Source: Candidatus Doudnabacteria bacterium
GTDB taxonomy: Bacteria > Patescibacteriota > Doudnabacteria > UBA920
DNA: 64,000 nt
Assembly: GCA_020850635.1 (NCBI GenBank)
Contig: JADZEH010000004.1
Coordinates: forward strand, 11,085 to 75,084
Direction of reading: 5' to 3'
The notes beneath the pieces are model-generated. The model was not told the DNA's origin, searched no databases, and worked only from the letters and a program-made list of their open reading frames with translations. The position numbers and the translations under genes are program-made. Of the stretch, positions 17,376-60,596 are shown piece by piece (the stretch's first letter is position 1; each line of letters begins with the position of its first letter).

Positions 17376-17452
17376 GGGCATATAGCTCAGTTGGTTAGAG
17401 CGCGTCACTGATAATGACGAGGTCCCTGGTTCGAATCCAGGTATGCCCACCA
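17376..17452 (+). tRNA. tRNA-Ile (anticodon GAT)
   Basis: Manual cloverleaf: acceptor GGGCATA/TATGCCC, D-arm GCTC-AGTTGGTTA-GAGC, anticodon arm CGTCA-CTGATAA-TGACG, T-arm CCTGG-TTCGAATC-CCAGG, encoded CCA. Confidence 0.85.
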
Positions 17453-17487
17453 CGGGTTTCTAAGTATCCAAATTAAGACCAAAATAA

Positions 17488-17739
17488 ATGCGATTCATTT
17501 TAGCTCCCCTGTTATTTGCCCTTGGTGTGTTAATGATGAAATACACCGTAAAGGTCACCGAATTTATGGGCACTGTCGGCTTTGCCGAAAAGTACATGCG
17601 TTCTGGTTTCGCGGGAACTTATACATGGTATCGACTGGTTGGTTTATTGTTTTGTATTTTGGCCGTACTTTGGATATTTGGAGTACTCAACTTTAGTTTC
17701 TTAGAAGCCGTGGTCTCTGGGCCAGGCAGTCAGAATTAG
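17488..17739 (+). CDS. Hypothetical small two-TM membrane protein between the two tRNAs
   Basis: 83-aa ORF with two hydrophobic helices. No SD; GC-richer than surroundings by eye. Coding status uncertain. Confidence 0.35.
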   Translation: MRFILAPLLFALGVLMMKYTVKVTEFMGTVGFAEKYMRSGFAGTYTWYRLVGLLFCILAVLWIFGVLNFSFLEAVVSGPGSQN

Positions 17740-17781
17740 AGAACAGGCGGGCGAGTTTACTCGATCCGCGACCAATAAATA

Positions 17782-17857
17782 GGGCCCTTAGCTCATTTGG
17801 TAGAGCGCCTGCTTTGCAAGCAGGAGGCGACCGGTTCGATCCCGGTAGGGTCCACCA
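17782..17857 (+). tRNA. tRNA-Ala (anticodon TGC)
   Basis: GGGCCCTTAGCTCATTTGGTAGAGC..CTGCT-TTGCAAG-AGCAG..CCGGTTCGATCCCGG..AGGGTCC-A-CCA; includes the G3:U70 Ala identity pair (GGGCCC/AGGGTCC). Confidence 0.85.
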
Positions 17858-35100: not shown

Positions 35101-37670
35101 TGCCATTCGAAATCGCCAGTAGTTGATTCGTAAGTTAAACATTCTTCATCAACAGAAGAGTCCACTGCTTTTAAATCTGCTTCAGTAACTTTCTCATCAA
35201 CAATCGCGGTGGCTCCAGTACTATCAATCACAATATCTCCACTCATTGCTACGGGATTATAGTTTGTACCATCCGCCACTAGAATAAATCCAGAGGTATT
35301 TGTGCCCATAAATAAATCATCGCCCGAAATAGTAAGATCGCCATCTAGTTGGACGTTACCAACACTGGTGATAAGAACGCGTTCCGTACCAGCCATACTA
35401 ATAGATAAATCATCTGATCCACCAAGCACAGCAATCTGCACTTTCTCAACACCAGCCTTATAAATGTAATACCCAGCTTGTGAAGCAGCGTCTCCATCAA
35501 CCTGAATTAATGCATGCCCAGCAGCATTAGTGTACGACATACCTACTGCCGCGGTTCCCACAACGCTCAGACCTGCAAAAGTTGGCAATGAAGTCGTTGT
35601 TAAATTTTGTCCTGTATTAAAAGTTAATTGCGAATCGCTAATCGAGTCGGCAGCAACAGAAATGCTAACAGCAGCGGTTTCTGATCCTGAACCACTTACA
35701 GAAATCTGGCTGTCGCCAGCAATAGTCGCAACATAGTTGCCAGCAGTATCAGTACCCAGCGCTACACTATTGGATTGAATCGTAGTTGCACCAGTATTAT
35801 CGATTGCAATATCACCAGACACCGACACAAACACAGGAACGCCACTGACATTACCAATAAGCAACTGTCCGCTCGTTGGCGCAGCCGTTACCTGCACTGC
35901 CGAAGTTCCATTCCCGTAAACCAAACCATTTAAAGAGAGAGACGACGTTCCTGTTCCACCATTCGAAACAGCAAGTACACCAGTCACATCGGTAGCTAAG
36001 TTAGTTGTACCACCACCAATAGCTCCCCAAGTTGCACCGTTATAGACATTAAATGCATCTGTTGTTGAGTTGTATACTAAAAGACCTGTCGCTGGGCTAC
36101 TAATCGCATCGCGTTCGACAGTCGTCATCCGTGGTGCTAAAAACCCACGTGTGGTTGAATTTGCTTGTAAGATTGCAGAAGCATCCAAAGTGCCTTCACC
36201 AATGAGCAGTTCACTTGAATCAAAACTACTACCTGAGGATACCGAGCTTGAACCAGCAGCACCACGTGCTCCCGTTTCACCAGTTGCCCCCTGTGGACCT
36301 TGTTCGCCCGTGTCCCCTTTGTCACCTTCTAAAAAGTCGAAAAGACCTAAGGCAATAAATCGATTCATCACTCTTGTTACTGCAGTCTCAATAGCACTTT
36401 CACCAAAGTTTACTGTTGTTGTCGGGGTCGGTGGTGTTATTGGTGTTGAGACAATAGGAACTTCTTCTGGCACGTAGACTATCGTAGGTGTTGGCTCTGG
36501 CTCAGAGCAAACAACTAACCAACACAAAACTTTCTCCCACCAAGGAATTTCGGTACTCTCTCCCAAAACACGACCACTATATTGGCCAGTCTCCGCGTTT
36601 GCTATTTTTGTTTGTGCTGAAAAATCATCAACTGTTAATTGAGGAGAAAATCTGTCTTGTAAATATTTACCATTAGTAGAAAAATTTTCAAGCAAGGGAC
36701 TCTGTAGCATGGCAACAGTTACATTGTCTGCTTTTTTAGCCACGATCTCAGCCAGCATCAAAGTCTTGTTAAACAATGTACTTGCACTGACTGCTACACT
36801 ACTATCAACACTCGCAACTATAAACTGACCTTCATTAAATATTTGATTAACAGAAACAGTAACTCTATCTTGCGAAGATACAAGATCATTTACAACAAAA
36901 TTTGCTAAAACAATATCAGCGTTATCGAGTATGTTATTACTAAATTTTTTAACATCTTCTATTGTCACCTTTGGCACACTCACTGTTGGAACAATATTAT
37001 CAAAAGCACGATGATTCTCTAAACTTTGACTAGCAAGGGTTTGCCCTGTAGTTATAAACTGGACAGACCCTGAGAACTGAGCGAGGACCTTGCCATCACT
37101 AACCCAAGTTGCGACTACCGAATCAACAATTCCAGCAACACGATCAAACGCTCCACTAATACTATTTGGTAAATTGCCAATATCGACCAATACCTGCTCA
37201 TACGACAGCTTGATCAAACTTCCTAAAGTTGAACTATTACTCCCTACTTCGGAAACTAATTCTTGTGAATATTGTTTGGAGTATTTCTTTGTGTTCCGGA
37301 TACCGATTGAAGCATGATCAGCAACGAACTGTTCTGCCTTTGATGTTATATCCTGTGCATCATAATAAAGATTTGCAAATTTTCGCTCATGCCACTCACT
37401 AAATTTAGTGAAGGTTACATAGCCTTCATAAATTGATTCTAGAATAAACTTGCTAGTTTTCGCATCGTAATAATTTAGAAATGCCGAGGTGTCTCCAATT
37501 ATGCCATAGGCTTGATTTTGCCAAGAAGAAACTATTGTCCCTGAATTATTAATTGAGGAATACTCTATATTGGATGGTTGGCTGGCGTATACTCTGTTTG
37601 AACTTAGTGACGCACATAATATAACAACAACCAAGAGGCTATAGACAAGTTTATTTATAACTTTCATCAT
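32106..37670 (-). CDS. Giant (1854 aa) secreted phage-tail-fibre-like protein: collagen-like GXY run, tail-fibre repeats, LamG-like domain, C-terminal S74-type intramolecular chaperone domain, acidic tail
   Basis: Signal peptide ...SSNRVYA; GDKGDTGEQGPQGATGETGARGAAG (collagen triplets); repeats GSVGIGTTIPDARLKVV / GNVGIGDASPTALLTVG / GNVGIGITTPSYPLHVV. LamG-like region LVVWLKADSL...YWEGDIAEIIVYSSAL; endosialidase-chaperone motif SDQRLKEDV...RIGFLAQEVEVISPELV. Confidence 0.85.
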   Translation of the reverse strand: MMKVINKLVYSLLVVVILCASLSSNRVYASQPSNIEYSSINNSGTIVSSWQNQAYGIIGDTSAFLNYYDAKTSKFILESIYEGYVTFTKFSEWHERKFANLYYDAQDITSKAEQFVADHASIGIRNTKKYSKQYSQELVSEVGSNSSTLGSLIKLSYEQVLVDIGNLPNSISGAFDRVAGIVDSVVATWVSDGKVLAQFSGSVQFITTGQTLASQSLENHRAFDNIVPTVSVPKVTIEDVKKFSNNILDNADIVLANFVVNDLVSSQDRVTVSVNQIFNEGQFIVASVDSSVAVSASTLFNKTLMLAEIVAKKADNVTVAMLQSPLLENFSTNGKYLQDRFSPQLTVDDFSAQTKIANAETGQYSGRVLGESTEIPWWEKVLCWLVVCSEPEPTPTIVYVPEEVPIVSTPITPPTPTTTVNFGESAIETAVTRVMNRFIALGLFDFLEGDKGDTGEQGPQGATGETGARGAAGSSSVSSGSSFDSSELLIGEGTLDASAILQANSTTRGFLAPRMTTVERDAISSPATGLLVYNSTTDAFNVYNGATWGAIGGGTTNLATDVTGVLAVSNGGTGTSSLSLNGLVYGNGTSAVQVTAAPTSGQLLIGNVSGVPVFVSVSGDIAIDNTGATTIQSNSVALGTDTAGNYVATIAGDSQISVSGSGSETAAVSISVAADSISDSQLTFNTGQNLTTTSLPTFAGLSVVGTAAVGMSYTNAAGHALIQVDGDAASQAGYYIYKAGVEKVQIAVLGGSDDLSISMAGTERVLITSVGNVQLDGDLTISGDDLFMGTNTSGFILVADGTNYNPVAMSGDIVIDSTGATAIVDEKVTEADLKAVDSSVDEECLTYESTTGDFEWQACDGVGGGSLSGLTAATATNSIDNTNYQQNWAWDTLAGGTGLALSANTTAAASNTQKLLSLSLSGANATSTQTTYSGYITNTHTGTDSTNVGLYASASGGTNNYAAIFENGSVGIGTTIPDARLKVVTGTANTKGIIVKGSPLGSGIEPDDISGLVVWLKADSLSLNNNDPVASWTNSSGSGNDATQGTGASQPLYIASGTNGKPVVRFDGTDDFLAMDSVVTNSRTLIMVIRHVDGSSPAGESPVGESTGFDYFGETGTDLINSLGGTNGDIASGQGYTNGTYTSVLNIQKPANTYSIITIVGTANSSFNWIGDTYHYLGVSQYWEGDIAEIIVYSSALSIADKESVEKYLSDKYNIAVSASSGGQSANLQEWQNSGGSALATVNETGGLIMAPDPSGSGSPNLLAVTGPAHVNLDSTIEAADINFALNRTVTFSTGSLATQRAVLINAPTYAFNGASTLTNAATLGITGAPVKSTNATITNTHGILISAGAVSTATNSFGLTVNAQTGATNNYAAQFMGGNVGIGDASPTALLTVGSGDLFQVNSSGAIAAVKGYIQSSGTMSVTSANTTQVTTASALALNVNSLTTGTGLYAASSNLTSGKLVDLQISGTSKALTNQTVLNIATSGSNNGASQTTYGLQVANTHTGTTAVNVGLSVSASGGTDNYAAIFSAGNVGIGITTPSYPLHVVLGAAGVVARFTDSDGSCDIDPTSTALVCTSDQRLKEDVATIESALEKVLNFRGVNFRWKSQTDDALRIGFLAQEVEVISPELVKIDPKTGLKSVNYVGFTPILVNAIHEQQDRIESLQVSVNSLQGNLGGNIDTPIVIKGHLYLTSDSVGQVKILSGETEVRVNFTKPYEYQPIVTISPRGEAALDNSFRYTVVDEDSSGFTIKISDDQNEAVEFNWHAFAGQDAKLTVSNGNTSTIKLVIAGQQSSESDSLSEDPEPVIDEGSVAGVVSEESPDEQMPVTEPEETQEEPEVQDSVESGTEVSLVE

Positions 37671-39653: not shown

Positions 39654-39690
39654 GACACACTTTATAAGTCTAGATTGTCTCTGAATAGAC

Positions 39691-39762
39691 AGAACAGGAA
39701 GATGTTGTTAAGAAAACCATCGGAGCGGAGCGACTGGTTTTAGTACAACGTCTTCCTGTTCT
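39691..39762. repeat. 72-nt hairpin element (copy 2, inverted relative to copy 1): outer stem AGAACAGGAAGATGTTGT/ACAACGTCTTCCTGTTCT around the same core
   Basis: Core 39701-39749 is the reverse complement of 29670-29718 (49/49 nt). The outer stem has a single T:G position. Confidence 0.6.
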
Positions 39763-39770
39763 AGAATATT

Positions 39771-39804
39771 CGAACAAAACAAAACTCCCCACCGAAGTGG
39801 GGAG
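39771..39804 (-). terminator. Rho-independent terminator of the RRM-protein gene (stem CTCCCCAC/GTGGGGAG, tetraloop, U-run)
   Basis: Minus-strand RNA reads CUCCCCACUUCGGUGGGGAG followed by UUUUGUUUUGUU, 30 nt past the stop codon. Confidence 0.6.
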
Positions 39805-39833
39805 CTAGTTTGATTTAAAACGAAAGTTCTAAA

Positions 39834-40145
39834 TTAGAAGTTATCGCGGCCACCCTGTGGGCGATCTGCCATTGGGCGAGCTTCGTTAACTAACAACTTA
39901 CGGCCACCGTATTCGGTACCGTTCAATTGTTCTACTGCGGCGTCTGCTTCAGCATCGTTATCGAATTCTACGAATCCGAAACCGCGGCTGCGGCCAGTCA
40001 TTTTGTCAGTGATGATGGTAGCTGTAGATACAGTACCAGATGCTGCAAACAACTGCTTAAGGTCGTCGCTCGTGGTTGCCCATGGAAGGCCACCAACGAA
40101 AAGTTTCTTTGCCATTTTACTAAGGCTTTCTCGTAAGCGCACCAT
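39834..40145 (-). CDS. RRM-type RNA-binding protein (glycine-rich RBP-like)
   Basis: RNP-2 LFVGGL and RNP-1 RGFGFVEF; 103 aa with RG/G-rich tail. Confidence 0.8.
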   Translation of the reverse strand: MVRLRESLSKMAKKLFVGGLPWATTSDDLKQLFAASGTVSTATIITDKMTGRSRGFGFVEFDNDAEADAAVEQLNGTEYGGRKLLVNEARPMADRPQGGRDNF

Positions 40146-40280
40146 CTAAACGCTTATCAAACTTATTAGATACTTTAAATCGCGCTTACTAGACTACAAA
40201 GCCTGAGTCTCGCTGACACTTAACGTAAGATAGTAAACGCATTATAGCACGTTAGCTGGTATTAATCAATGGCTCTATTA

Positions 40281-40309
40281 TTGACTTTTTGGTCATTATA
40301 TTGTACTAT
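40281..40309 (+). promoter_or_regulatory. Candidate promoter TTGACT-N17-TACTAT for the Nudix-like gene
   Basis: ttgactttttggtcattatattgTACTAT about 45 nt upstream of a TTG start, which is preceded by an AAGGGGG SD. Confidence 0.3.
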
Positions 40310-40355
40310 AACGAGTTCCCAGCAGTTCAAACCAGTTTAAAAGGGGGTATAGGCC

Positions 40356-40829
40356 TTGCCATATACATCAGCGTTTGCGCTTGTTAGAAATGGAGCAAGA
40401 GAAATCCTGCTCGTTCTTCGGGAAGATGGCCAGCGATGGACTCTTCCCGGTGGATCGCTTCTGAAAGGAGAGATCCCGCGCGTGGGAGTCACGCGAATCA
40501 CTCAACTGAAGACGGGAGTAGAAATCGCCGTCTCAAAGATGATCGGCGTCTTCGCTCACGTCGAGCACGAAGGGTTGTGCGTCGCCTACTTCGCCGACCC
40601 GATTGGCGGTACAATGCTCGACTCGATGCCACCCATGGTCTCGGACTACCGTTACTTCGATGTTCGTGAGATCGTGCAGATGGGAAGCGCGGTGTACAAC
40701 GCGCAACAACGAATCATCGTCGATGCGCTTCTCGCTCGCCGGCGCGGGATAGAATTCCCGCTCGAGGCACAATTCACGCTTCCCACCCGACAGGAGTGGG
40801 AGAATGTGATCACGGTTCTCAAGGCATAG
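40356..40829 (+). CDS. Nudix-fold protein with degenerate Nudix box (catalytic Glu positions replaced: ...GEIPRVGVTRITQLKTGV)
   Basis: GGSLLKGE-x7-R present but REx2EE is replaced by RITQLK. TTG start with strong SD. Visibly GC-richer than flanking DNA. Confidence 0.55.
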   Translation: MPYTSAFALVRNGAREILLVLREDGQRWTLPGGSLLKGEIPRVGVTRITQLKTGVEIAVSKMIGVFAHVEHEGLCVAYFADPIGGTMLDSMPPMVSDYRYFDVREIVQMGSAVYNAQQRIIVDALLARRRGIEFPLEAQFTLPTRQEWENVITVLKA

Positions 40830-40910
40830 AGCTCCCCACTCCATCACACGACGGGGCCATTCAGCATAAAGCCGCGCACCAAACGATTGGTGCGCGGCTC
40901 TTTCTTTATC

Positions 40911-41657
40911 TTATTCCAAAAATAACAACGAACCCATCAAGGCGATACCAACAACAAACCAAGCGAACTGAATTAGAGAACGACGCTTCCCTACTTCTTT
41001 ATGAAGTTCGGGAACTAAATCTGACAAAGCGATGTAAATAAAGCTGGCACCAGCAAAAGCCAATAAGAAAGTTGGTGGTTCTTCTAAATTTTGAGCAAAG
41101 ACTAAAACGATAACGGCACCGATTACCGAAGTTAATCCAGATAATAAGTTATACCATAAGGCTTTGGCCTTACTCCACCCACCGTGAATCAAAATCGCGT
41201 ACTGACCAATCTCTTGAGGAATTTCATGTAACACCACCGCGATGGTCGCCGCAATACCTAAAGTTGGACTAACTAAGAAACTGGCGGCAATTACAATACC
41301 ATCAATAAAGTTATGAAGAGAATCTCCAAACATGGTGAGATAAACCGAGCTGTGAACTCGTTCATCATGTTCATCACCGTGGGTGTGCTGCCAATGAATA
41401 AAGCGTTCTAAAATAAAGAACACGACAATTCCAAACAAAAAGTAAAGACCTTCGCGAGTTCCGAATTGCGTCTCTGCCATTTCAGGAATAACATGAATGA
41501 ACACATCACCCAGCAAAGCACCAGCCGAGAAACTGACTAAGTAGTAGAGGATACTTTTCAAGCGATCGTGATTTAGACCAAGTGTAATTATTCCCACTAA
41601 TGATACAGCACTAACTATCAGCACAGCTAACAAAGTATAAAGCCAAACTTCAGACAT
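40911..41657 (-). CDS. zupT: ZIP-family zinc/metal transporter (ZupT-like)
   Basis: HNFIDGIVIAASF...AVVLHEIPQEIGQYAIL signature; 8 TM. Confidence 0.8.
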   Translation of the reverse strand: MSEVWLYTLLAVLIVSAVSLVGIITLGLNHDRLKSILYYLVSFSAGALLGDVFIHVIPEMAETQFGTREGLYFLFGIVVFFILERFIHWQHTHGDEHDERVHSSVYLTMFGDSLHNFIDGIVIAASFLVSPTLGIAATIAVVLHEIPQEIGQYAILIHGGWSKAKALWYNLLSGLTSVIGAVIVLVFAQNLEEPPTFLLAFAGASFIYIALSDLVPELHKEVGKRRSLIQFAWFVVGIALMGSLLFLE

Positions 41658-41662
41658 AAGAG

Positions 41663-42160
41663 TTATTTAATGATAATGTATAAAGCCATAGCCGCCATGA
41701 GTAAATCTTCAGTCAAACTCACGGTGGTTAATGGCAGTTTAATATAAGTTCCGAGACAGGCACACTTGATTTTACTTCCGCGTAACAACTGACGACCAAC
41801 ACCAAGCGCTCCAATAAGCATAATCACAAGAGTCACCCAGTTAATACCAGCCGGCGCGTTACTTAAGTAGGCAATACCCAAACCAAGCTCAATAAACGGG
41901 TACAAATATGCATAAGCGGTGCTACGTTTTGCGATTAGATCATAACCAATGTACGAACTAACAAAGCCACGTAAATCTAAGAGTTTAAAGATAGCGAAGA
42001 CCACAAAGAACACGCCCATAAAAGCGGTCATAAAATTTACGGAACCAAAACTCGTATAGCCCCATGACAGCAAAAGAATAGCAATAATTACTAACGCGAA
42101 CTTGGCGTACTCTTTTGGTGTACCCTCTTGACTATGGTCCATGTTTTCGTGATCGTGCAT
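41663..42160 (-). CDS. Hypothetical 4-TM membrane protein in metal-homeostasis operon
   Basis: Hydrophobic helices and an N-terminal His/Asp-rich stretch (MHDHENMDHSQE); between a CsoR-family gene and zupT. Confidence 0.45.
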   Translation of the reverse strand: MHDHENMDHSQEGTPKEYAKFALVIIAILLLSWGYTSFGSVNFMTAFMGVFFVVFAIFKLLDLRGFVSSYIGYDLIAKRSTAYAYLYPFIELGLGIAYLSNAPAGINWVTLVIMLIGALGVGRQLLRGSKIKCACLGTYIKLPLTTVSLTEDLLMAAMALYIIIK

Positions 42161-42466
42161 TTATTTGTTGTTTAAAAAATAAATATCAAGCAACTCTTTA
42201 ATCTCTTTTTGCTTCTTGTTAGATTTCCAATCTTTGCTCACATGTTCTTGGAGATGATTCTCGAGCATCGATTGATTAAAGCTTTGGAGTGATTTCTGCA
42301 CAGCTAAAGACAAGCGGATAATATCAACGCAATATTTGTCATTAGTAACCATGCGTTCAAGTCCTTCAATCTGCCCTTGAATAATATGGAGCCTGGTCAC
42401 TGCTTTCTTCTGAGTCTGTGCAATCATGTTAATATGATATACCCCTAGGGGGTATATGTCAAACAA
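42161..42466 (-). CDS. CsoR/RcnR/FrmR-family metal-sensing transcriptional repressor
   Basis: VTRLHIIQGQIEGLERMVTNDKYCVDIIRL...LENHLQEH; Cys and His at the family's metal-ligand positions. Confidence 0.7.
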   Translation of the reverse strand: MFDIYPLGVYHINMIAQTQKKAVTRLHIIQGQIEGLERMVTNDKYCVDIIRLSLAVQKSLQSFNQSMLENHLQEHVSKDWKSNKKQKEIKELLDIYFLNNK

Positions 42467-42517
42467 AAAGAAAGGCGTGAGTTCACGCCTTAGTTACCAG
42501 CCACCACCAGGGTTCGG

Positions 42518-42793
42518 CTACTGCTCCGATTCGAATTCGCGGAGAAGCGAATCGAAGAGCAAACACTGCTTCGCGCGGTGAGAGATTTCGCCCAGCCGTC
42601 CTTGCGACTCAAGCTCGATGATTTGGTCGGGGTTAATTGCTTCCCGAAGTCTGTGACGAACCCCAGAGACAACACAATAGAAATCATCCCCTCCCATGGA
42701 TCGAGTGAGTTTGAGATCGACCCCAGGGATGAACTTGCCAAGAGCGATCTCAGCAGGCCCAACTACTCTTTCCGAAAAAACAGCAGAACTCAT
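42518..42793 (-). CDS. Hypothetical 91-aa protein (GC-rich, strong GGAGG SD)
   Basis: ATG at 42793 preceded by GGAGGTCGT. No recognisable family. Confidence 0.35.
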   Translation of the reverse strand: MSSAVFSERVVGPAEIALGKFIPGVDLKLTRSMGGDDFYCVVSGVRHRLREAINPDQIIELESQGRLGEISHRAKQCLLFDSLLREFESEQ

Positions 42794-42912
42794 ACGACCT
42801 CCGATTTCGAGAATGCAAATAGTGCGCCAACACCATCTGCCCGCGCAACAATCAGTTGGCGAAGATTTGAATATAGCAAAAAGTGAAACTTTTGTAAATT
42901 TTACATTATAGA

Positions 42913-42949
42913 TAAAAAAACTGCGGGACCCAACTAAATGAGTCCCGCA
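42913..42949 (-). terminator. Rho-independent terminator downstream of purL (stem TGCGGGAC/GTCCCGCA plus U-run)
   Basis: Minus RNA reads UGCGGGACUCAUUUAGUUGGGUCCCGCAG followed by UUUUUUU. Confidence 0.55.
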
Positions 42950-42974
42950 AGACAGAGACACCGCGAAGGTGCTC

Positions 42975-45900
42975 CTAGGTTTGGCACCAGGCAAACGCGT
43001 TCCGGAACATACGCAGCCAGGGGCCGTTTTCATGAGATCGCCAATCGTATGGTGACCAAGGCGACTGCCATGGCAAGAAGCATCGCTCCGGGTGCGGCAT
43101 CATGGCCAAGTGTCGACCATCAGCCGAACACAGAGCAGCGATACCTTGAGGACTCCCATTCGGATTGAACGGATAGTCGCAAGTGATGTCGCCGTCATGA
43201 TCAAGATACCGAATCGGAGCCAGGTAGCCCTGGATGATCCCCTGTAGAACCTCTGGCTGAGGAACATACAAGCGACCTTCACCATGCGCAACCCACACGC
43301 CCAACCGAGAACCCTCCATCCCTTGAAGGAAGATAGACGGACTAGGCAGAATTTCAACAGTAGAAAACCGCGACTCAAACCGTCCAGACTTGTTCGCAAT
43401 GAAACGCGGCTGTGAAGAGTCGGGAAGGTCCGCACCAGGGACCCGTCCGAGCAAAGCCATGAACTGGCAGCCGTTGCAGACACCGAGAGAAAACGTGTCG
43501 AGACGGGCGTAGAAACGATCGAACTGATCACGGACGTGGTCGTTGAATTTGACCATGCCCGCCCAGCCCTTACCCGCATCAAGCACATCACCAAACGAAA
43601 ACCCTCCCGGAAAAACGAGGCCAGAAAAATCTTCGAGACTGTAACCCTCGAGCAAATCGCTCATGGTCAAGTCGTAGACCTCGAAACCTACCATGTAAAG
43701 CACGGCAACCATTTCACGGTCACCGTTAGTTCCCGGAGCGCGCAACACCGCAACCTTCGGCCTTGGCCGAAGAGACACAATAACTGCCGAACGATCTGGA
43801 TCGAAAGTCAAACGTCGCGGCGGGTCACTGAGGAGGCTACGAACCGCTTCCCGTTCAGCTGCGACACACTCAGGGTTAGCCTGTAAAGCGTCAAGCTGGA
43901 AGCTCGTCTCTTCCCAGACCGCACGAAGCGCGGTCATGGTATTGTTGAGCACCGGGATGCTGTTGTGATAGATGGTCACCTCGTTGGTATCAACCGTCGT
44001 CGCCACGTAGTGAACCTTGAGACCGGCCTGCCGGAACCAATAGCTCACTGTGTTTGGGTCAGGTGTCTCGATCAGGAGTCCAACTTCTTCGTTAAACCAA
44101 GCTTCAATCGGATCATGAGCCGTTTTGAAATGGCCTATGAATCCAAAATTGCTGGCGAATGACATCTCAAGGAGAGCCGTGATCAAACCGCCATCACTGC
44201 GATCATGGACCGCCGTGATGAGACCTTCCCCGATCATGTCCTGCACACACTGGAACAGGAACTTCAGATCCTTCGCGCTTGTGACATCGGGAGCCTCATC
44301 GCCAAGCTGACCCAAACTCTGGGCCAGCGCCGAACCACCAAGACGACAAGCATCACCCAACTCAACGAGCAAAACCCCGTTGAGAGCACCCTTGAACTCG
44401 GGAGTGACTTTGGCCGTTACGTCGGCCATTGTCGCGTAACCCGCGATCACGAGTGTCCCTGGAGCCTTGCTCTTTTCCGACGTGCCATCAGGAGCGGTCA
44501 TTTTCGCGGCCATCGATGAACTGTCCTTACCACCGTCACCGGCGATACCGAGAGTCATCATAATGTCGCTCATGGCTTCCGCAGCCTGGTAAAGTCGAAC
44601 ACCCTCACCAGGTTCCTTCGCGGCCCACATCCAGTTCACCGAGCACTTGATGTGTTCGATATCAGTGATGCAAGCACCCGCCATGTTGAGAAGCATCTCT
44701 GCCACAGACATGCGAGCCATGGCCGCAGGATTGATGAGCCCAATAGTGGGACGTTCGCCGAGACTCATCGCCGTACCGACCGTGTCGAAATGGCTCTGAG
44801 CCATCACGGCATAGTCAGAAAGTGGCAAATGATTCGGTCCGACGCACTGTTGTTGGGCCACAAGCCCACCCACACTACGATCGAGTTTCGTCGTCAAGAA
44901 CCGTTTCGAACCAACCGCAGGTTGGCGAAGCACGCCATCGAGCGCCGATTCGAAAGTTAGATCAGACGGCAGCACAAGCGGAGTGAGATCGAGTGGAATG
45001 TCCTCGAACTCGAAGGTCTTGCGCGGAGGATTCCCGAACAGTTCCTTGAGTGGAAGATTGACCGGCGTCGAGTTGTCAGCACTGTCATGAACAATGAACA
45101 ACCCATCTCCGGTAACCTCGCCAACACAAACACACGGAGCACCTTCCCGTCGGGAAATTTCCTCAAGCAGGCCAAAGCTCTCGGAGTGAATCAGAAACGC
45201 GTTGCGCTCCTGAGATTCGTTACCAAGATACTCCAGAACCGAAAGAGAACTGTCTCCTAAAGGGATGGCGCGGAGCTGGATCTTCGCCCCCGCAGGGTCG
45301 ACTATTTCGGGAAGCGCGTTCGCGTCCCCTCCAGCACCGAGATCGTGAGCGGAAATGATCGGGTTGCGATCCAGAAGTTCGCAGCAAGCTCGAATCACTC
45401 GATTCACGCGGTTCTCCATTTCGGGATTACCACGTTGCACCGAATTGAAATCGAGCTCGACCGTATTCTCGCCATGAGTCATGGAACTTGCAGCTCCACC
45501 ACCTACACCGATCCGGTACGCAGGTCCACCAAGCTGTACGACAAGCATTTCAGCTTCGGGCGAACCCTTGCTGATGTGTTCGTCGACCATCTGGCCAAGA
45601 CCACACGTGTAAAGAATCGGTTTACGATAACTACGGAGGTCCTTGTCACCAACGCGAAGCTCGTACGTTCGCAGGGATCCGATGACCCCCGCCTCGCCGA
45701 AACAGTTCGCGTAATGGGAAGCTCCGTTGCTCCCCTCGATGAGAACATCGAGCGGAGTTGGTAGATTGGGCGTATCACGATAGCCATGATCAATCTCGCC
45801 GGGAATGGAATACCCAGGGATATTGAGCTGCCCAACGCAGTACATCAGACCACCAACACCCACGAGTCCACCGCGACCTACCACCTGGTTGTCGCGAATC

Positions 45901-46868
45901 CGACCACCAACACCGGTTGCCGCCCCTGGATAAGGAGCGATACGCGTCGGATGATTGTGGGTTTCAGCAGTCAATGTGGGATGCAGAACCACCGTAGAGA
46001 GGTTGAACGCACTGGAGCGTCCTGGACTCGTAGGAAGAAGCACCTCGACTTGGCCACCCATGATCGCCGAACTGTCGTCGCAGAAAGCGATGATGGAGTT
46101 GGAAGGGTGGTGAACCCACGGCGCCTTGACGATATGCATCAAGCTGTGTGGCAACGGCCGACCGTTAACCACATACAGACCTTTCCAGAAACCGTGTCGA
46201 CAGTGTTCGGAATTGGCCTGACCAATCTGGAACAACTCGACGTCAGTCGGGTTGCGTCCCAGAGTAATGAACAGCTCGTAGACAAAGATGAGATCAGCTT
46301 TGTCCATGGACAACCCGAGCTCAGCGTTGATTGCACAAAGGGCATCGATGCCCTCCTCGAGCAAACGCACGTACCTCACTGGAGCAGGATGGATGTGATG
46401 ATCGAACGACGTCAACGGAGATTCGTAAACCATCTCGGTCATACGATCCGCAAGAACAGACGCGAGCCCTTCGCGCTGCGATGAAGAAAGCGGTTGGTCA
46501 AAGAGATATCGAAGCGAAGCTTCGAGACGCTTGACCTCCGGCAGACCACACGCCGCACAGATCGCGACCGCTGTCGAACTCCACGCCGTCTCGAAGTTGA
46601 GCCGAGGCCCAATCTCGAGAATGCGAAGGTCCGAGAACCCTTGAAAGTTCGTCAGTGATCGCAAATTCCACGCTTCGAAAGTCTCGCGAAGAATCCAGCC
46701 CAACGAGAGGGCGTGATCGCCTTCAATAGGCTTGTCGTGACCGATGTTATAGCAGACCTCGATTTCCTGGAGCGACGACTCGTCGATTCCTGGAATGCGA
46801 GCTGCCGCGATCAGACGACCGATTGAAGCGCGGTCACCCAATCTTCGAAACAGCTTGGACAACTGCAT
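42975..46868 (-). CDS. purL: Phosphoribosylformylglycinamidine synthase, single-chain large form (PurL with fused C-terminal glutamine amidotransferase)
   Basis: About 1298 aa from the MQLSKLFRR start, which has an AGGAG SD; the track's upstream extension is ignored. The N-terminus aligns with E. coli PurL (PRLNFETAWSS...KRLE); AIR-synthase-like repeats; class I GATase SLGVCNGCQ; GC-rich. Confidence 0.9.
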   Translation of the reverse strand: MQLSKLFRRLGDRASIGRLIAAARIPGIDESSLQEIEVCYNIGHDKPIEGDHALSLGWILRETFEAWNLRSLTNFQGFSDLRILEIGPRLNFETAWSSTAVAICAACGLPEVKRLEASLRYLFDQPLSSSQREGLASVLADRMTEMVYESPLTSFDHHIHPAPVRYVRLLEEGIDALCAINAELGLSMDKADLIFVYELFITLGRNPTDVELFQIGQANSEHCRHGFWKGLYVVNGRPLPHSLMHIVKAPWVHHPSNSIIAFCDDSSAIMGGQVEVLLPTSPGRSSAFNLSTVVLHPTLTAETHNHPTRIAPYPGAATGVGGRIRDNQVVGRGGLVGVGGLMYCVGQLNIPGYSIPGEIDHGYRDTPNLPTPLDVLIEGSNGASHYANCFGEAGVIGSLRTYELRVGDKDLRSYRKPILYTCGLGQMVDEHISKGSPEAEMLVVQLGGPAYRIGVGGGAASSMTHGENTVELDFNSVQRGNPEMENRVNRVIRACCELLDRNPIISAHDLGAGGDANALPEIVDPAGAKIQLRAIPLGDSSLSVLEYLGNESQERNAFLIHSESFGLLEEISRREGAPCVCVGEVTGDGLFIVHDSADNSTPVNLPLKELFGNPPRKTFEFEDIPLDLTPLVLPSDLTFESALDGVLRQPAVGSKRFLTTKLDRSVGGLVAQQQCVGPNHLPLSDYAVMAQSHFDTVGTAMSLGERPTIGLINPAAMARMSVAEMLLNMAGACITDIEHIKCSVNWMWAAKEPGEGVRLYQAAEAMSDIMMTLGIAGDGGKDSSSMAAKMTAPDGTSEKSKAPGTLVIAGYATMADVTAKVTPEFKGALNGVLLVELGDACRLGGSALAQSLGQLGDEAPDVTSAKDLKFLFQCVQDMIGEGLITAVHDRSDGGLITALLEMSFASNFGFIGHFKTAHDPIEAWFNEEVGLLIETPDPNTVSYWFRQAGLKVHYVATTVDTNEVTIYHNSIPVLNNTMTALRAVWEETSFQLDALQANPECVAAEREAVRSLLSDPPRRLTFDPDRSAVIVSLRPRPKVAVLRAPGTNGDREMVAVLYMVGFEVYDLTMSDLLEGYSLEDFSGLVFPGGFSFGDVLDAGKGWAGMVKFNDHVRDQFDRFYARLDTFSLGVCNGCQFMALLGRVPGADLPDSSQPRFIANKSGRFESRFSTVEILPSPSIFLQGMEGSRLGVWVAHGEGRLYVPQPEVLQGIIQGYLAPIRYLDHDGDITCDYPFNPNGSPQGIAALCSADGRHLAMMPHPERCFLPWQSPWSPYDWRSHENGPWLRMFRNAFAWCQT

Positions 46869-47232
46869 ACGAACTCCTAACCGGTCATCTGACCGAATTC
46901 GGAAGTTGAATAAATAGAACAATCTCTGAAATTGTCCTCCTAAAAATTGCGTAAGAACAAACCAAGTCCAAAAACTTGGGCCTTCTAGGATAACATTCAG
47001 AGCACTTTTGAGCAATGCTCTAAAAGTTACAAAAAATAGCACAATAAAACACCCTTTGCGGGTGCTTGGTGTGCTGGTGTTTAACAGCTGAATAGCGATT
47101 AGAAAATGTGAAATCAATTACGAGTCAATTCGTTTAAGATGTGTAGCTTTCATCGAAATGAAAACTAACGACCACGGAAATAACTGAACAGAAACTTCGA
47201 AAAGCTTTTGAGCAGAGATTTAAATTCCTTAG

Positions 47233-48688
<1,456 letters not shown>

Positions 48689-49358
48689 TAATATAAGACT
48701 GCACAACACACCGAAGTGCGGCAGAATGTTTGATTCTGTTTCCGCCAAATAAATGGCGATGAACTAATCTGGTGATACTGTATCTGCCGGATGACAGATT
48801 TAAAGCGTCGTATCACACGCTTTTGATTTTGGGAAATCAACACATATTCCGAGGAGGAATATATGCTCAAAGAATTGACGTAATTGAACATCTTACCCAT
48901 CAGATTGCTCTGATAGTTTTGTTGTCTACAATGTTTGACCTCTCATATTGCTATGAAAAGGTTTTGTACAATCACATTTCTAATCACTATTCAGCTGTCA
49001 AAGTACGTAAGGAGTTATTGGAAAGACAAACCTATAGGTTTTTCTTTCCAAACGCTCGCTATCGCGAGCCCTATCTTTTCCTAGAAGTTAACTCGTGCAC
49101 GGAATAAATCCGTTGCACTCGTTTACTATTTGGAACTGAGAGGAAGAGGTAAACAAGGAAACAAAAAACACATAAGCGGATTGCCTATAGTGCCTAATTC
49201 TCTGGATGGTCCAGACCCCTTATAATCGCTGTCTTTTGGACAGATACACAAGAGTAGAATTTATGGTATTTATTGCCTTTTTAATCTCCTGTGCGCCCTT
49301 ATTGAAGCGCTTTACAATATTAAAGTATTTAGGGGTCTATGTCAAGTGATTTTTCAAG

Positions 49359-51053: not shown

Positions 51054-51189
51054 AAGTCAGGGCCAAATATCCACCGTCAGGCTTGATTGTTTTATTTTTT
51101 TCTCCTCCACTCTGCCATATACTAAGAGTAAGTGAAGACTTTGCTCCAGCAAAGTAAGAGTCAACGCCTAAGCCAAGGAGGCTGACATC

Positions 51190-51669
51190 ATGCGCGCGAT
51201 CGTGTACACGTTGATCTTTGTGTTTTGGTTCGTCGGTCTCGGACTGATCACGGTAAACGCCCAATTCGCCAAGGACACGGGGATGTTCAAACCGCGGAAA
51301 GACGCCCCGATAGTCATGCGGATCGATGACAAAAGAAGTCTCCACATCTCGGACAGTGGCCCTGAAGAGTGGATCTTCTGTGTTTTCAAAACCGAGTTTG
51401 AGGAGAGACTCGATGCGGTCATCATCATGAAGACCGAAAAAGCTGAATATGCCGACAAATGCCCCATCATGCTCGTCATCTCCGACCGCGTCGGCGACAA
51501 GAACAGTATTGAATTTTCAGTGGCTGTAGGAGAAGCTCAGCAGACCCTGAAAATTCCAATACTCTACATGACCAAGGAATACAATCAAGACCGCAAGTGG
51601 CTACGGCAGGGGTACAGAAGAATGGTTCTAAGCCAACAAGAACAAGAAGGGGTGACTCACTACCAATGA
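51190..51669 (+). CDS. Hypothetical N-terminally anchored protein (GC-rich)
   Basis: AAGGAGG SD 9 nt upstream; N-terminal TM then a soluble domain; convergent with the ABC transporter gene. Confidence 0.45.
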   Translation: MRAIVYTLIFVFWFVGLGLITVNAQFAKDTGMFKPRKDAPIVMRIDDKRSLHISDSGPEEWIFCVFKTEFEERLDAVIIMKTEKAEYADKCPIMLVISDRVGDKNSIEFSVAVGEAQQTLKIPILYMTKEYNQDRKWLRQGYRRMVLSQQEQEGVTHYQ

Positions 51670-51742
51670 GCACTGATGCACAATCGAGAAGCTTTCGGAC
51701 CCGACATCCGGAAGCTTTTTCATATACAAAAATTTAGACAAA

Positions 51743-51768
51743 GAAAAAAGGGAGCTGGTTAGGCTCCC
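51743..51768 (-). terminator. Rho-independent terminator of the ABC transporter gene (stem GGGAGC/GCTCCC plus U-run)
   Basis: Minus RNA reads GGGGAGCCUAACCAGCUCCC followed by UUUUUU. An adjacent second palindrome GCACGCAGTGCGTGC is also present. Confidence 0.5.
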
Positions 51769-51792
51769 CTCGCACGCAGTGCGTGCAATGTA

Positions 51793-53619
51793 TCAAACTG
51801 CTTTACCCTTCGCCTCTCCGTGCGAGTATGCATCCCATAACTGACGGAACGCTGGGCACTTCCTAAGAAGCTCTTCAAAACTTCCTGACGCTACCAAGCG
51901 ACCCTTCTCGAAGTAAAAAACCTCATCGAACATGGGTAGCAGGTGCAATCGATGGATAGACGAGACGATCGTCTTTCCGACGAACTCACGAAAGATGTTT
52001 TGGTAGACGCGCATCTCCGTCGCCGTATCCAAACTACTCGTAGGCTCATCGAGCAGAACGATGTCTTTGCCATCGCAGGCCAGCAGCCCACGTGCCAAAG
52101 CCGCTCGTTGCTGCTGTCCTCCCGACAGATTTACACCCTTTTCCTGCACGGACGACTGGAATCCATTCGGAAGTCTTAGAACAACCCCAGTGAAACAAGC
52201 CATGTCAGTGAACTTGCAGACAAACGCTTGGGTGTACTCTGCCCCAACCGTGATATTCTCCCAGATCGTAGTCGCGAAAATCTCGTAGAGCTGTGGAACC
52301 AATGCGATCGCTCTACTGATCCCGGCAAAACCATCAGGAATCACCCGACCATCCACACTAAGCTTCAAGCTTCTCGGGTGATAGAGGTCACGAATGACCT
52401 TGAGCAATGTGGTCTTACCACTACCACTCTCACCCACGAACGCGTAGCGCTTGCCTCGTATAAGCTCGAAAGAAATGTTGTCGAGATGCGACTCAATCTC
52501 ACTCGGCTCGTCGACAGGCGCGGGGTAGGAGAAGCTCAGGTCTGAAATCTCCAACTTTTGCCACGACCCCGGAAGAACGTGGTTGGTGAAATTCTCAGGC
52601 TTGAAGTCGTCTGAGAGTTCCTCGGAGTTTAGAACTTTGGCTTTCTGTTGAAGAACCTCGCTGTACTTCTCGGTGAACTGGAAGAATCGCTCTCCGATAT
52701 CCTGCAGGTATCTCCCCAGCAAGTAAAGGCTGGGAATTAGTAAGGCGCTAGAGGTCCCTATATTCTGCCAAAAGTACACACCCAGCACGAGAATGGCCAT
52801 GACGGTACAACACATATTGGTCGAGAACCACTTGAGCTCATTAAGACGCTGATTGTCTCGAAACAAAGCAGCGGGCTCGTTAAGCTTGCGCATGATTGCT
52901 TCGTAGACCAACTTCTCAACCCGCAATATGATAACGGTCGTGATGTTACTGATCGCATCAAAGGTGCTCTCAGAAATTCTGTTCTCAGCATGACCAAGTT
53001 GTTTGTATTGAGCGATGATCGTTCGGTCAAACAACATAGTGATACGGATAGAGATGAATAACATCACCAAAACGATAACCACTGAGGGAGGACTGAACCA
53101 GCCCAAAATGACACAACTAATAACGAACTTGATAACCGCGCTGATGACCTGGAAGGAACTGGTCGAAAATGAGAACAACGCATCGGTTCCCTTCCCGACC
53201 TTGTCAATCGTATCACCGGAGTGATGGTTACCATGCCACTCCAACGGGAGTGTCAAAACCCCTTTCATCAAGAAACCCCGGTAATTCACGCGGGTCTTGT
53301 ACGCATTATTGCGCTCGATGCACCGTGCTGGACCATGGAAACTCCAAAACACAATATCAATGACCAACGTCAGGCTTAAGATCCCGTAGATGGTAAAGAT
53401 ATTCTGCTCGGTAATGCCATCCTTCTGGATGATACTAAAGATTGTGGCCATGACGAGAGGCTGAAAGCACATCTCGAAAGCGTTGGCGACAATGAACATG
53501 ACCCAATACAGGACCACCTTCCGACGATTACCATCCGAGTACCTCCACGTTTTAGAGAAGAGGTACGTCAGGGGATTTCGATCACTATCAAGCTTAGCTT
53601 CCTTGCGAGAGAAGAGCAT
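51793..53619 (-). CDS. ABC exporter, fused permease (6 TM) plus ATPase
   Basis: Walker A GESGSGKTTLLKV, signature LSGGQQQRAALARGLL, Walker B IVLLDEPTSSLD. GC-rich. Confidence 0.8.
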   Translation of the reverse strand: MLFSRKEAKLDSDRNPLTYLFSKTWRYSDGNRRKVVLYWVMFIVANAFEMCFQPLVMATIFSIIQKDGITEQNIFTIYGILSLTLVIDIVFWSFHGPARCIERNNAYKTRVNYRGFLMKGVLTLPLEWHGNHHSGDTIDKVGKGTDALFSFSTSSFQVISAVIKFVISCVILGWFSPPSVVIVLVMLFISIRITMLFDRTIIAQYKQLGHAENRISESTFDAISNITTVIILRVEKLVYEAIMRKLNEPAALFRDNQRLNELKWFSTNMCCTVMAILVLGVYFWQNIGTSSALLIPSLYLLGRYLQDIGERFFQFTEKYSEVLQQKAKVLNSEELSDDFKPENFTNHVLPGSWQKLEISDLSFSYPAPVDEPSEIESHLDNISFELIRGKRYAFVGESGSGKTTLLKVIRDLYHPRSLKLSVDGRVIPDGFAGISRAIALVPQLYEIFATTIWENITVGAEYTQAFVCKFTDMACFTGVVLRLPNGFQSSVQEKGVNLSGGQQQRAALARGLLACDGKDIVLLDEPTSSLDTATEMRVYQNIFREFVGKTIVSSIHRLHLLPMFDEVFYFEKGRLVASGSFEELLRKCPAFRQLWDAYSHGEAKGKAV

Positions 53620-53657
53620 GACTTCCTCCTATTCAATTTTGGAACGGCGGCAGGGCG

Positions 53658-53690
53658 CAAAAAAGCGCCGCAGCTTTCGCCGCGGCGCTT
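53658..53690 (-). terminator. GC-rich hairpin plus U-run (AAGCGCCGC...GCGGCGCUU then UUUUUU on the minus strand) between clpP and the ABC gene
   Basis: 9-bp stem followed on the minus strand by a T-run. Confidence 0.45.
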
Positions 53691-53956
53691 AGGAGTGATG
53701 ATTTAGTTTCGAATCAAAATCATACCTAATGGTCGTGGCAAAAACGCTAAAAGAGCTTCGCTGGTGCGGGCTGGAAAAATGACGTTCTGAGTTGTAAACA
53801 TGAGTATTTTCATGTGTTCTCGACCATTTAGGTTAATTATCTTGTGTTTCGCTACTAAAAGTAGACGGCGCTTTTTAAGCAATGTTACAGAATACGACAA
53901 AAAGTCGGTCTTGTCAAGACAAAGAAAAACACCGCCACTTGGGCGGTGTTTGAAGT

Positions 53957-59849: not shown

Positions 59850-60596
59850 GTGGCACCAATTTTGAACTGGAGGTTCGTAATGAGAAGCCTGATAGTTTGG
59901 ATCCTGCTTGTGATGATGTGTTTGATGGCACCTGCGATGGTCTCGGCCCAAGCCACAAACTCCTGTGCTGGCTACTACAGCAACAACAATCCCTACCCGT
60001 GTTGCACTAATGGCAACTGTACCTGGTGGTCATGGAAAATGGCCAACGAGAACTGGGGGCAACAACTCGGCGTACGTGGTAATAACTGGGGTGATGCCAG
60101 ATCATGGCTGTCGCGAGCACGAAGTAACCACTTCGGAGTCAAGACTACCCCGACACCTGGCACCGTAGCCGTAAACTCGTATGTTAACGGCTACGGACAC
60201 GTCGCTTGGGTCTACGCCGTAGACAGCAACAACGTTTACGTCACCGAGATGAATTGCAACACCACTACGGGCATGCGTTACTGGCAATACCCGATCACGT
60301 GGTTCGACGGTTACATCTACCGCAAACCGAAAGTCTCGTCCATCTATCCGCAACCTACTTGGTCAACCCAAGACCGAGTGTATACGCTTTATGGCAGTGG
60401 CTTTCAGTCACGACCCAGCATACGTGTAACGTTTCCAAGTGGCGGTAGTGGTACACTTTCGGGTTCGCAAATCCCCTACACCGACAGTGGTCAAATAACC
60501 ATGATCGCGACTTTGGCCAGTGTTGGGTGGTATTCATTCCAAGTCCGCAACCGAGACGGTGGGTGGTCGGATCCATGGTGGGTCTACGTCATGTAA
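59850..60596 (+). CDS. Secreted CHAP-domain peptidoglycan hydrolase with C-terminal Ig-like domain
   Basis: Signal peptide; CHAP core NCTWWSWKMA...GTVAVNSYVNGYGHVAWVYAV...YVTEMNC (Cys/His). GGAGG SD. Confidence 0.7.
   Translation: MAPILNWRFVMRSLIVWILLVMMCLMAPAMVSAQATNSCAGYYSNNNPYPCCTNGNCTWWSWKMANENWGQQLGVRGNNWGDARSWLSRARSNHFGVKTTPTPGTVAVNSYVNGYGHVAWVYAVDSNNVYVTEMNCNTTTGMRYWQYPITWFDGYIYRKPKVSSIYPQPTWSTQDRVYTLYGSGFQSRPSIRVTFPSGGSGTLSGSQIPYTDSGQITMIATLASVGWYSFQVRNRDGGWSDPWWVYVM

Follow-up and report, generated by a model that had tools for sequence, protein, structure and literature searches.

Probable old single-gene imports of GC-rich composition, purL among them, in an AT-rich Candidatus Doudnabacteria genome

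The subject of this report is a stretch of 64,000 nucleotides from Candidatus Doudnabacteria bacterium (contig JADZEH010000004.1 of assembly GCA_020850635.1; hereafter, the window), and in particular purL, a large gene of purine synthesis, together with five other genes which differ from their surroundings by high GC content. The data suggest that these genes are probably old single-gene imports, which for the most part came with their own signals from GC-richer Patescibacteria, and which have been decaying in composition since. In the proposed course of events an AT-rich Doudnabacteria genome, whose own genes mostly lack Shine–Dalgarno (SD) sequences, would carry six or more inserted single genes drawn from a GC-rich pool, all located between 40 and 61 kb of the window. 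Most of the inserts would have arrived with their own translation and termination signals (four GGAG-type SD sequences and three hairpin terminators). Five of the six would already have been in place in the common ancestor with a sister genome, and, according to a model of base composition, would have decayed since then toward the AT-rich composition of the receiving genome. The largest insert, purL, which directly follows an unlinked 16S rRNA gene, would have been obtained by transfer within the superphylum rather than by capture from a host organism, and a later homologous exchange near the 16S rRNA gene would have homogenised its 5′ half.

The base composition of the window was analyzed in sliding windows and gene by gene. 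The mean GC content is 0.43, and the gene content is typical of a cell of the Patescibacteria, or candidate phyla radiation (CPR), with a type IV pilus cluster, giant surface proteins, RNase Y, YmdB, a short NusA, and ClpP. In 1-kb bins the GC content between 43 and 47 kb was 0.53–0.55, as compared to a background of about 0.40, while in 300-nt windows it was 0.54–0.58 at 40350–40950, 0.52–0.58 at 42900–46800, and 0.45–0.54 at 51150–53700. The steps in GC content were sharp, and the borders of these three stretches fell on gene ends. Hence, the computed profile is not uniform, which agrees with the three GC-rich patches that a first-pass annotation of the window had described by eye. The GC content of third codon positions (GC3) was 0.360 on average in 45 background genes (standard deviation 0.043, maximum 0.462), with values of 0.34–0.38 for the conserved native genes of ClpP, NusA, and RNase Y, while it was 0.53–0.64 (z = 4.0–6.4) in six outlier genes. 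These genes encode a Nudix-like protein, the small protein orf91, PurL, the protein orf159, an ABC exporter, and a CHAP-TIG protein (Table 1); the last of them had been absent from the list of the first-pass annotation and is a sixth member of the GC-rich class. The different codon usage noticed in the patches was also borne out, because the codon preferences of the GC-rich genes are inverted relative to those of the native genes (ATC 0.64 vs. 0.20, TTC 0.69 vs. 0.22, and TTA 0.02 vs. 0.35). The GC-rich signal directly above purL extends through 47233–48695, which is explained by the 16S rRNA gene located there. The AT-rich genes interleaved between the patches had been regarded as native-looking, and the Pfam scans agree with this view, identifying them as genes of ZIP, MauE, CsoR, HhH-GPD, DUF1232, and RNase_T proteins.

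The GC-rich genes are also distinguished by their translation signals. In a scan of the 25 nt upstream of each start codon in the whole window, motifs of the GGAG or GAGG type preceded four of the six GC-rich genes, as compared to two of the 45 native genes (Fisher p = 0.0008), so the strong GGAGG-type sites which had been seen by eye were confirmed by the count. The sequences are AGGAG before purL, GGAGGT before orf91, AAGGAGG before orf159, and AGGAGG before the ABC exporter gene. The 3′ end of the 16S rRNA keeps the CCUCC sequence despite the near absence of SD sequences from the native genes, which suggests that translation initiation in this organism is mostly SD-independent. Strong hairpin terminators were found on the 3′ side of purL, orf91, and the Nudix-like gene, and each GC-rich gene is a separate unit set between AT-rich native genes devoid of SD sequences. 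The proposal of the first-pass annotation that salvage or synthesis functions were acquired piecemeal is thus retained in one part: the separate single-gene units, their SD sequences and terminators, and the additional cassettes of the sister genome described below all speak for acquisition in pieces. The other part, concerning the nature of the cargo, does not hold, because purL is the only gene of a synthesis pathway among the six, the others encoding an ABC exporter, a CHAP hydrolase, a degenerate Nudix fold, and two lineage-restricted small proteins.

The sharp compositional steps at the gene borders resemble those of a chimera, and the first-pass annotation had named mis-assembly as the alternative to acquisition; in this explanation, which extends to chimeric binning, the GC-rich pieces would belong to another organism and would have been wrongly joined. 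It is contradicted by an independent Logan contig (L001), which is 100% identical to the window over 47368–42189 (5180 nt), from the end of the 16S rRNA gene through purL and orf91 into csoR, and thus across the borders of purL. The same gene order was found in a sister genome (GCA_964407465.1) from a different sample (SRR12762287), where the Nudix-like gene, orf91, purL, orf159, and the ABC exporter gene, that is five of the six GC-rich genes, are in place (the CHAP-TIG gene was not compared). The order in the sister genome is CAP, RRM, Nudix-like in one block; 16S end, purL, orf91, csoR, MauE, ZIP in another; and ClpP, ABC, orf159, RNase_T, DUF1232, HhH-GPD in the third. Additionally, on a contig from a third sample (L176), orf91 (88% identical) is contiguous with csoR and MauE. 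An assembly artifact is hardly conceivable in view of these data, and can be considered excluded as far as sequence data allow.

The comparison with the sister genome also bears on the age of the inserts. The synonymous divergence (dS) of native genes from their sister orthologues was 0.6–3, with a median near 0.9, while it was 1.15–1.48 for the Nudix-like gene, the ABC exporter gene, orf159, and orf91, and 0.38 for purL. Because the dS values of 1.15–1.48 are like those of native genes, these genes were in place before the two lineages split, and the presence of five of the six in the sister genome is at odds with a recent acquisition. In both copies the GC-rich genes still have GC3 of 0.62–0.67. 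The ABC exporter is 78% identical between the two genomes at a dS of 1.29. A two-state amelioration model was calibrated on native genes, using 2800 of their synonymous third positions; the probability of change per lineage was 0.273 from GC to AT and 0.145 from AT to GC. The modeled ancestral GC3 was 0.82–0.88 for the ABC exporter gene, the Nudix-like gene, and orf159, and 0.75 for purL, and the observed discordance of GC and AT at third positions between the copies (0.34–0.39) was close to that predicted (0.37–0.38). In terms of this model the data fit an acquisition before the split, from donors with GC3 of about 0.8–0.9. Active maintenance of GC3, suggested by saturated dS, was considered and rejected, because plain decay from GC3 of about 0.85 suffices in the two-state model. 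In a distant relative (L171, with an ABC exporter 73% identical) the GC3 of the ABC gene has reached 0.45, as compared to 0.31–0.39 in its native neighbors, while a SemiSWEET gene present only in the sister genome still has 0.83; both values agree with the decay model.

The SemiSWEET gene belongs to one of two insertions specific to the sister genome (contig L002). The first of them (216–869) contains a 186-amino acid (aa) open reading frame (ORF) with GC3 of 0.60 and no known domain, and is located between the 16S trailer and purL. The second (5430–6110) contains a 40-aa ORF together with the SemiSWEET gene (MtN3_slv), flanked by the terminator of orf91 on one side and the promoter of csoR on the other. 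The 186-aa ORF and the SemiSWEET gene each have their own SD sequence and terminator, and both insertions fall exactly on unit borders. Only the extra cassettes of the sister genome are polymorphic, while the five window genes compared are common to both genomes. A separate observation concerns the RRM gene (39834–40145), which together with both its untranslated regions (39664–40323, 660 nt) is 93%–100% identical to the sister sequence; the RRM protein is 100% identical with a dS of 0.06, while its flanking genes show saturation (dS of 1.15 and 1.83). The conservation of this tract is due to one of two causes, a recent exchange or a strong constraint on the RNA.

If no transfer had taken place, the six genes would be native, and their GC content would be held high by forces specific to each gene, such as the amino-acid composition and codon selection of a conserved enzyme, or GC-biased gene conversion in frequently recombining segments. 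This explanation draws on the fact that in other genomes the GC content of purL exceeds that of its flanks in 77 of 78 loci, with an excess of 0.07–0.13 in AT-rich genomes, and that the corresponding difference in GC3 (dGC3) is positive in most loci. It is also consistent with the high GC3 that both lineages have retained at dS values above 1, and with the signs of recent recombination in purL. However, the dGC3 of purL in the window, +0.214, is the largest of 71 loci, with a median of about +0.04 and the next values being those of a Parcubacteria locus (+0.196) and the sister genome (+0.18). An explanation specific to purL is also insufficient, because unrelated, poorly conserved, and fast-evolving small genes (orf91, orf159, and the Nudix-like gene, with dN/dS, the ratio of nonsynonymous to synonymous divergence, of 0.16–0.43) share the same GC3 and codon set, while conserved native genes such as those of ClpP, NusA, and RNase Y do not. 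The GGAG-type SD sequences mark the GC-rich genes, the third-position discordance fits simple decay without any maintaining force, and the ABC gene of L171 has fallen in GC3. Taken together, these data make the absence of any transfer improbable. At loci L070, L052, L047, L174, and L175, among which are Parcubacteria and Saccharibacteria, purL was 0.10–0.13 GC-richer than its flanks.

To identify the donor lineage of purL, as the first-pass annotation had proposed, homologues of PurL were collected and placed in a neighbor-joining tree of 194 sequences. The sister copy is 89% identical, and the next nearest proteins were only 52%–57% identical. PurL and its sister copy belong to a clade of 100 sequences that received 100% bootstrap support and that holds every protein match named Patescibacteria, Saccharibacteria, Kazan, Kerfeldbacteria, or Pacebacteria and a few labeled Actinomycetota, while the PurL proteins of Nitrospirota, Gemmatimonadota, and Acidobacteriota are outside it. 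Other CPR purL genes are located elsewhere in the tree, which indicates that CPR purL has more than one origin. In the closer relatives that were examined, the GC3 of purL was 0.67–0.76, near the value of 0.75 modeled for the ancestral Doudnabacteria copy. A profile scan of a genome collection served the tree and the GC comparison, though not the naming of a donor; the matches listed were mostly from Nitrospirota, Gemmatimonadota, and Desulfobacterota at 43%–53% identity, and the genome of the window was not among them. The best named relatives of the ABC exporter were from Paceibacterota, Zambryskibacteria, and Patescibacteria, at 61%–63% identity. Because the closest relatives of both PurL and the ABC exporter are other Patescibacteria, the donor was probably within the same superphylum, and the source, as judged from the sequences, was most likely a GC-richer member of the Patescibacteria rather than the host. 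The search thus points to a probable donor group rather than to one donor. It may be common for purL to be passed repeatedly between Patescibacteria.

A donor outside the CPR, for example a GC-rich actinomycete serving as host, whose genes would have patched the metabolism of the recipient, has some points in its favor. Sequences labeled as Actinomycetota (L009, L012, L034, and P0059, with GC3 of 0.83–0.91), the labels being unverified, are found inside the PurL clade, the implied ancestral GC3 of 0.8–0.9 is typical of GC-rich host bacteria such as actinomycetes, and the cyo operon is reported to have entered Doudnabacteria from other phyla (PMC8407418). On the other hand, the named members of the clade are overwhelmingly Patescibacteria, the best named matches of the ABC exporter point to the same group, and homologues of the Nudix-like protein and of orf91 are almost nowhere to be found. 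We therefore regard capture from outside the CPR as a rather doubtful source, and transfer within the superphylum remains the preferred explanation.

The position of purL next to the 16S rRNA gene was considered as a possible reason for its integration there. No 23S or 5S rRNA gene was found in the 64-kb window, so the 16S rRNA gene is unlinked. It is preceded by a promoter-like site, and it is bracketed by a 26-nt inverted repeat, 92% complementary, in which 47080–47105 pairs with 48977–49002; this repeat is probably the processing stem of the 16S leader and trailer. The tRNA-Ile(GAT) and tRNA-Ala(TGC) genes, the usual spacer tRNAs, are paired but stand alone at 17376–17857 on the plus strand, 30 kb away and on the other strand. 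The site downstream of the 16S rRNA gene could be a preferred landing and expression site, served by read-through from the strong rRNA promoter. This would agree with the location of purL, and of the 186-aa ORF of the sister genome, on the 16S strand right after the trailer stem, with the lack of a sigma-70-like promoter between the 16S rRNA gene and purL in a simple scan with one consensus, and with the fact that it is exactly there that the two genomes carry different cassettes, the sister cassette being placed at the point equivalent to 47039/47025 in the spacer. However, hairpins with T-runs at about 47066–47040 and 46979–46962 could terminate transcription, the promoter scan was limited to that one consensus, the comparison includes two genomes only, and the other GC-rich genes are far from any rRNA gene. 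A landing site of this kind is therefore unlikely.

The identity to the sister genome is uneven along this region. It is 99% in the 16S trailer, 93%–99% in the 5′ quarter of purL, and about 90% in the middle of the gene, as compared to 85%–91% in the native csoR–ZIP region. The third-position discordance of purL (0.18 vs. 0.36 predicted) and its dS of 0.38 are both about half of the values of its neighbors. This pattern suggests that the trailer and the 5′ half of purL may later have undergone homologous exchange, with the conserved 16S rRNA gene as its anchor. That the trailer is 99% identical was not accepted as proof of recent recombination, as this is at least partly due to the 26-nt processing stem. 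The segment of PurL residues ~856–1006 (43850–44300), between the synthetase core and the glutaminase, has a nucleotide identity of 63%–81% to the sister copy, while elsewhere it is about 90%.

Several points weigh against the explanation by old imports and the later history attached to it. The branching inside the PurL clade is weakly supported, with bootstraps of 8–33 at the internal nodes; with these values, and with the nearest sequence only 57% identical, no donor of purL can be named, and the phylogeny taken alone is also compatible with vertical descent of purL within Patescibacteria. The GC contrast is partly a property of the gene, because in most genomes purL somewhat exceeds its flanks in GC content. 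The amelioration model is a simple one, with two states and branches taken as equal, and it leaves selection on codons out of account. The conservation of the 16S trailer can also be explained by its role in the processing stem. Finally, no integrase, transposase, tRNA, or flanking repeats were found at the inserts by Pfam scans of the 51 large ORFs, a tRNA scan, and inspection of the junctions.

The purL gene starts with the ATG codon at 46868, preceded by its AGGAG sequence, and encodes 1297 aa; a 1380-aa ORF beginning with TTG at 47117 is an over-extension, which the gene callers did not use. The expected single-chain, large-form enzyme of about 1298 aa with a fused glutaminase was thus recovered almost to the residue, in a five-domain layout. 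The Pfam domains are FGAR-AT_N, FGAR-AT_linker, AIRS_C (in two stretches), FGAR-AT_PurM_N-like, and GATase_5, with E-values of 1e-13 to 1e-99, and the protein matched PurL structures in the PDB from end to end (E = 0 to 1e-271). The scores were 1089 bits to 9N9W (a 1369-residue chain), which is probably human PFAS, and 905 bits to Salmonella PurL (1T3T). The glutaminase motifs GVC(1131)NGCQ and MMPH(1259)PE(1261)R match their counterparts in the alignment with Salmonella PurL, and C1131, H1259, and E1261 presumably form the Cys-His-Glu triad of the glutaminase, as in the Salmonella structure. The synthetase motifs SEHCRH, ETHNHP, and GAATGxGGRIRD are also present. Among 25 PurL homologues the residues C1131, H1259, E1261, H222, H225, E302, T303, H304, G321, G322, R325, and D326 are invariant, and purL has a dN/dS of 0.16 relative to the sister orthologue (89% identical protein). 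Hence, on the evidence of motifs and substitution pattern, PurL is best read as a working, catalytically intact formylglycinamidine ribonucleotide (FGAM) synthetase (EC 6.3.5.3) under purifying selection. It would convert formylglycinamide ribonucleotide (FGAR), ATP, and glutamine to FGAM, ADP, inorganic phosphate, and glutamate, in step 4 of de novo purine synthesis. The enzyme resembles the large PurL proteins of Salmonella (1T3T) and 9N9W in its length of about 1300 aa, five-domain layout, near full-length alignment, and glutaminase and synthetase motifs. It differs from them in scoring higher against 9N9W than against the enterobacterial enzyme, in its membership of a clade dominated by Patescibacteria, to whose nearest members it is just 52%–57% identical, and in having its gene adjoin a 16S rRNA gene.

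The first-pass annotation had found purL without neighboring pur genes, and Pfam scans of all 51 large ORFs confirmed that there is no second pur gene in the 64-kb window. The purL gene also stands alone in E. coli. For this reason, the missing neighbors say little. The neighborhoods of purL in Patescibacteria relatives are varied: an AIRS/AIRS_C (purM-like) gene is present in L173 and a Lyase_1 (purB-like) gene in L174 and L175, L003 and L006 are without nucleotide genes, and L004 has pyrimidine genes and an IMP dehydrogenase gene. A study of soil bacteria reported CPR genomes, Doudnabacteria included, without most nucleotide-synthesis genes (PMC8407418), which makes an orphan purL conceivable but does not prove it. 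The "orphan" status is therefore not established, and one contig cannot decide it. A true orphan, that is an intact FGAM synthetase kept by purifying selection in an episymbiont without the rest of the pathway, and lying where read-through from the rRNA promoter would reach it, seems a rather remote prospect. If it were true, it could mean that purine intermediates are exchanged with a host (FGAR in, FGAM out), or that the large PurL has a second role outside the pathway; the position after the unlinked 16S rRNA gene could at the same time be a slot used again and again for expressing foreign cassettes. Should the genome truly be without other purine genes, an intact purL would be a real biochemical puzzle. 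The literature on purL or FGAM synthetase in CPR, Patescibacteria, or Doudnabacteria yielded nothing specific.

The Nudix-like gene encodes 157 aa from a TTG start, with AAGGGGG upstream of the gene. The protein matched the Pfam NUDIX family (PF00293) over residues 4–108 with 36.7 bits, as compared to a cut-off of 21.1. Like other members of the Nudix hydrolase superfamily, it keeps the G-x5-E beginning and the G-U end of the Nudix box; unlike them, it has the catalytic RE-U-x-EE core replaced by RITQLK (GSLLKGE-IPRVGVT-RITQLKTGV), so that the three glutamates of the REUXEE part of the GX5EX7REUXEEXGU motif are changed to I, L, and K, and a canonical metal-dependent pyrophosphohydrolase is unlikely. 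This box is identical in the sister orthologue, which is 75% identical overall, and the dN/dS is 0.16. Only two homologues were found among 5.8 billion proteins, and an AlphaFold2 (AF2) model built from three sequences had a confidence (pLDDT) of 43, too poor for confirming the fold or for a fold search. The description of this gene as degenerate is therefore right for the catalytic box and wrong for the gene, which is not decaying; the product is probably a conserved protein with a non-hydrolytic Nudix fold.

The small SD-bearing ORF pointed out previously, orf91, is a real, lineage-restricted small gene. It is preceded by the GGAGGT sequence and by a promoter-like site (TTTACA, 17 nt, TATATT), and its length of 91 aa is kept in the sister genome, while the identity of the two proteins is just 42% (dN/dS 0.43). 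Three real homologues were found among 1.84 billion representatives. There was no Pfam match even at E = 1, and the AF2 model from a single sequence (pLDDT 55) was unusable for a fold search. A role of orf91 as a PurS-like partner of PurL was considered and dropped in view of the missing Pfam match and the low conservation. The sister orthologue of orf159 is 52% identical, with a dN/dS of 0.23.

The native csoR–MauE–ZIP operon next to orf91 has GC3 of 0.37–0.42 and is 91%–96% identical to the sister genome at the amino-acid level, with dS of 0.6–1.3. The promoter of csoR overlaps a perfect palindrome, ATACCCCCTAGGGGTAT, which is conserved in the sister genome (L002), and this palindrome is likely the CsoR operator for the operon. 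When the ZIP transporter was used as a metagenome query, only homologues of at most 56% identity were obtained, none of them with purL nearby. Among the giant surface proteins of the window, one of 1854 aa (32106–37670, minus strand) has a Peptidase_S74 domain (an endosialidase chaperone, typical of phage tail spikes), and one of 2053 aa (19886–26047, minus strand) has a weak Laminin_G match.

Table 1. Features of the window discussed in the text; GC3 is given with the z-score relative to the 45 background genes
Feature	Position	Strand	GC3 (z)	Remarks
Nudix-like gene	40356–40829	+	0.627 (6.2)	
Terminator 3′ of Nudix-like gene	40870–40899	+		13-bp stem then T-run; faces ZIP gene end
ZIP zinc transporter gene	40911–41657	−		native AT-rich operon; Pfam
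MauE-like gene	41663–42160	−		native AT-rich operon; Pfam
csoR-like repressor gene	42161–42427	−		native AT-rich operon; Pfam
csoR promoter	42434–42462	−		TTGACA, 17 nt, TATCAT; overlaps ATACCCCCTAGGGGTAT
Terminator 3′ of orf91	42472–42491	−		left border of GC-rich patch
orf91	42518–42793	−	0.533 (4.0)	
orf91 promoter-like site	42898–42870	−		
Terminator 3′ of purL	42921–42950	−		12-bp stem then T7
purL	42975–46868	−	0.590 (5.3)	GC 0.55
16S–purL spacer	46869–47232	−		trailer stem arm 47080–47105; hairpins with T-runs
16S rRNA gene	47233–48695	−		Rfam SSU_rRNA_bacteria, 1418 bits; directly upstream of purL, same strand
16S promoter-like site	49345–49317	−		
orf159	51190–51669	+	0.637 (6.4)	AAGGAGG SD; without known domain
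ABC exporter gene	51793–53619	−	0.616 (5.9)	fused membrane and ATPase domains, 608 aa; AGGAGG SD; Pfam
CHAP + TIG protein gene	59850–60596	+	0.610 (5.8)	peptidoglycan hydrolase type

Horizontal transfer and genomic islands have been documented in Patescibacteria (PMC12455944), and the cyo operon of soil Doudnabacteria was reportedly obtained from other phyla (PMC8407418). The GC-rich genes of the window are similar to these cases in that their GC content and codons deviate from those of the receiving genome, they are inserted between native genes, content varies at the same borders between close relatives, and the cargo includes transporters, cell-wall hydrolases, and small unknown proteins. 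They differ in being single genes without integrase, tRNA, or repeats, and in being old (dS above 1) yet still distinct, with SD sequences in a nearly SD-less genome. Integron cassettes offer another comparison, since they are also single-ORF units in series, in one orientation and beside a fixed site, with content differing between relatives. In contrast to integrons, there is no integrase domain in the window, and the units have their own terminators and in some cases their own promoters; no attC-like repeat common to the inspected junctions was seen by inspection, with no dedicated search using an attC model. The locus is not an integron and has no sign of a mobile element.

In its general nature the locus is a case of ordinary horizontal gene transfer, in which compositional islets in a CPR genome provide another example of a documented phenomenon. 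For the annotation of such genomes it carries the warning that composition alone is no ground for calling a purL "orphan" or a contig "chimeric." If the explanation by old imports is right, the window provides a clean and dated example of an ultra-small Patescibacteria genome that retains single-gene imports over long times, at synonymous divergence above 1, and in which GC3 and SD sequences serve as two independent marks for recognizing the imports. The imports would be drawn largely from the group's own gene pool, which bears on the extent to which these symbionts repair their metabolism by mutual gene exchange.

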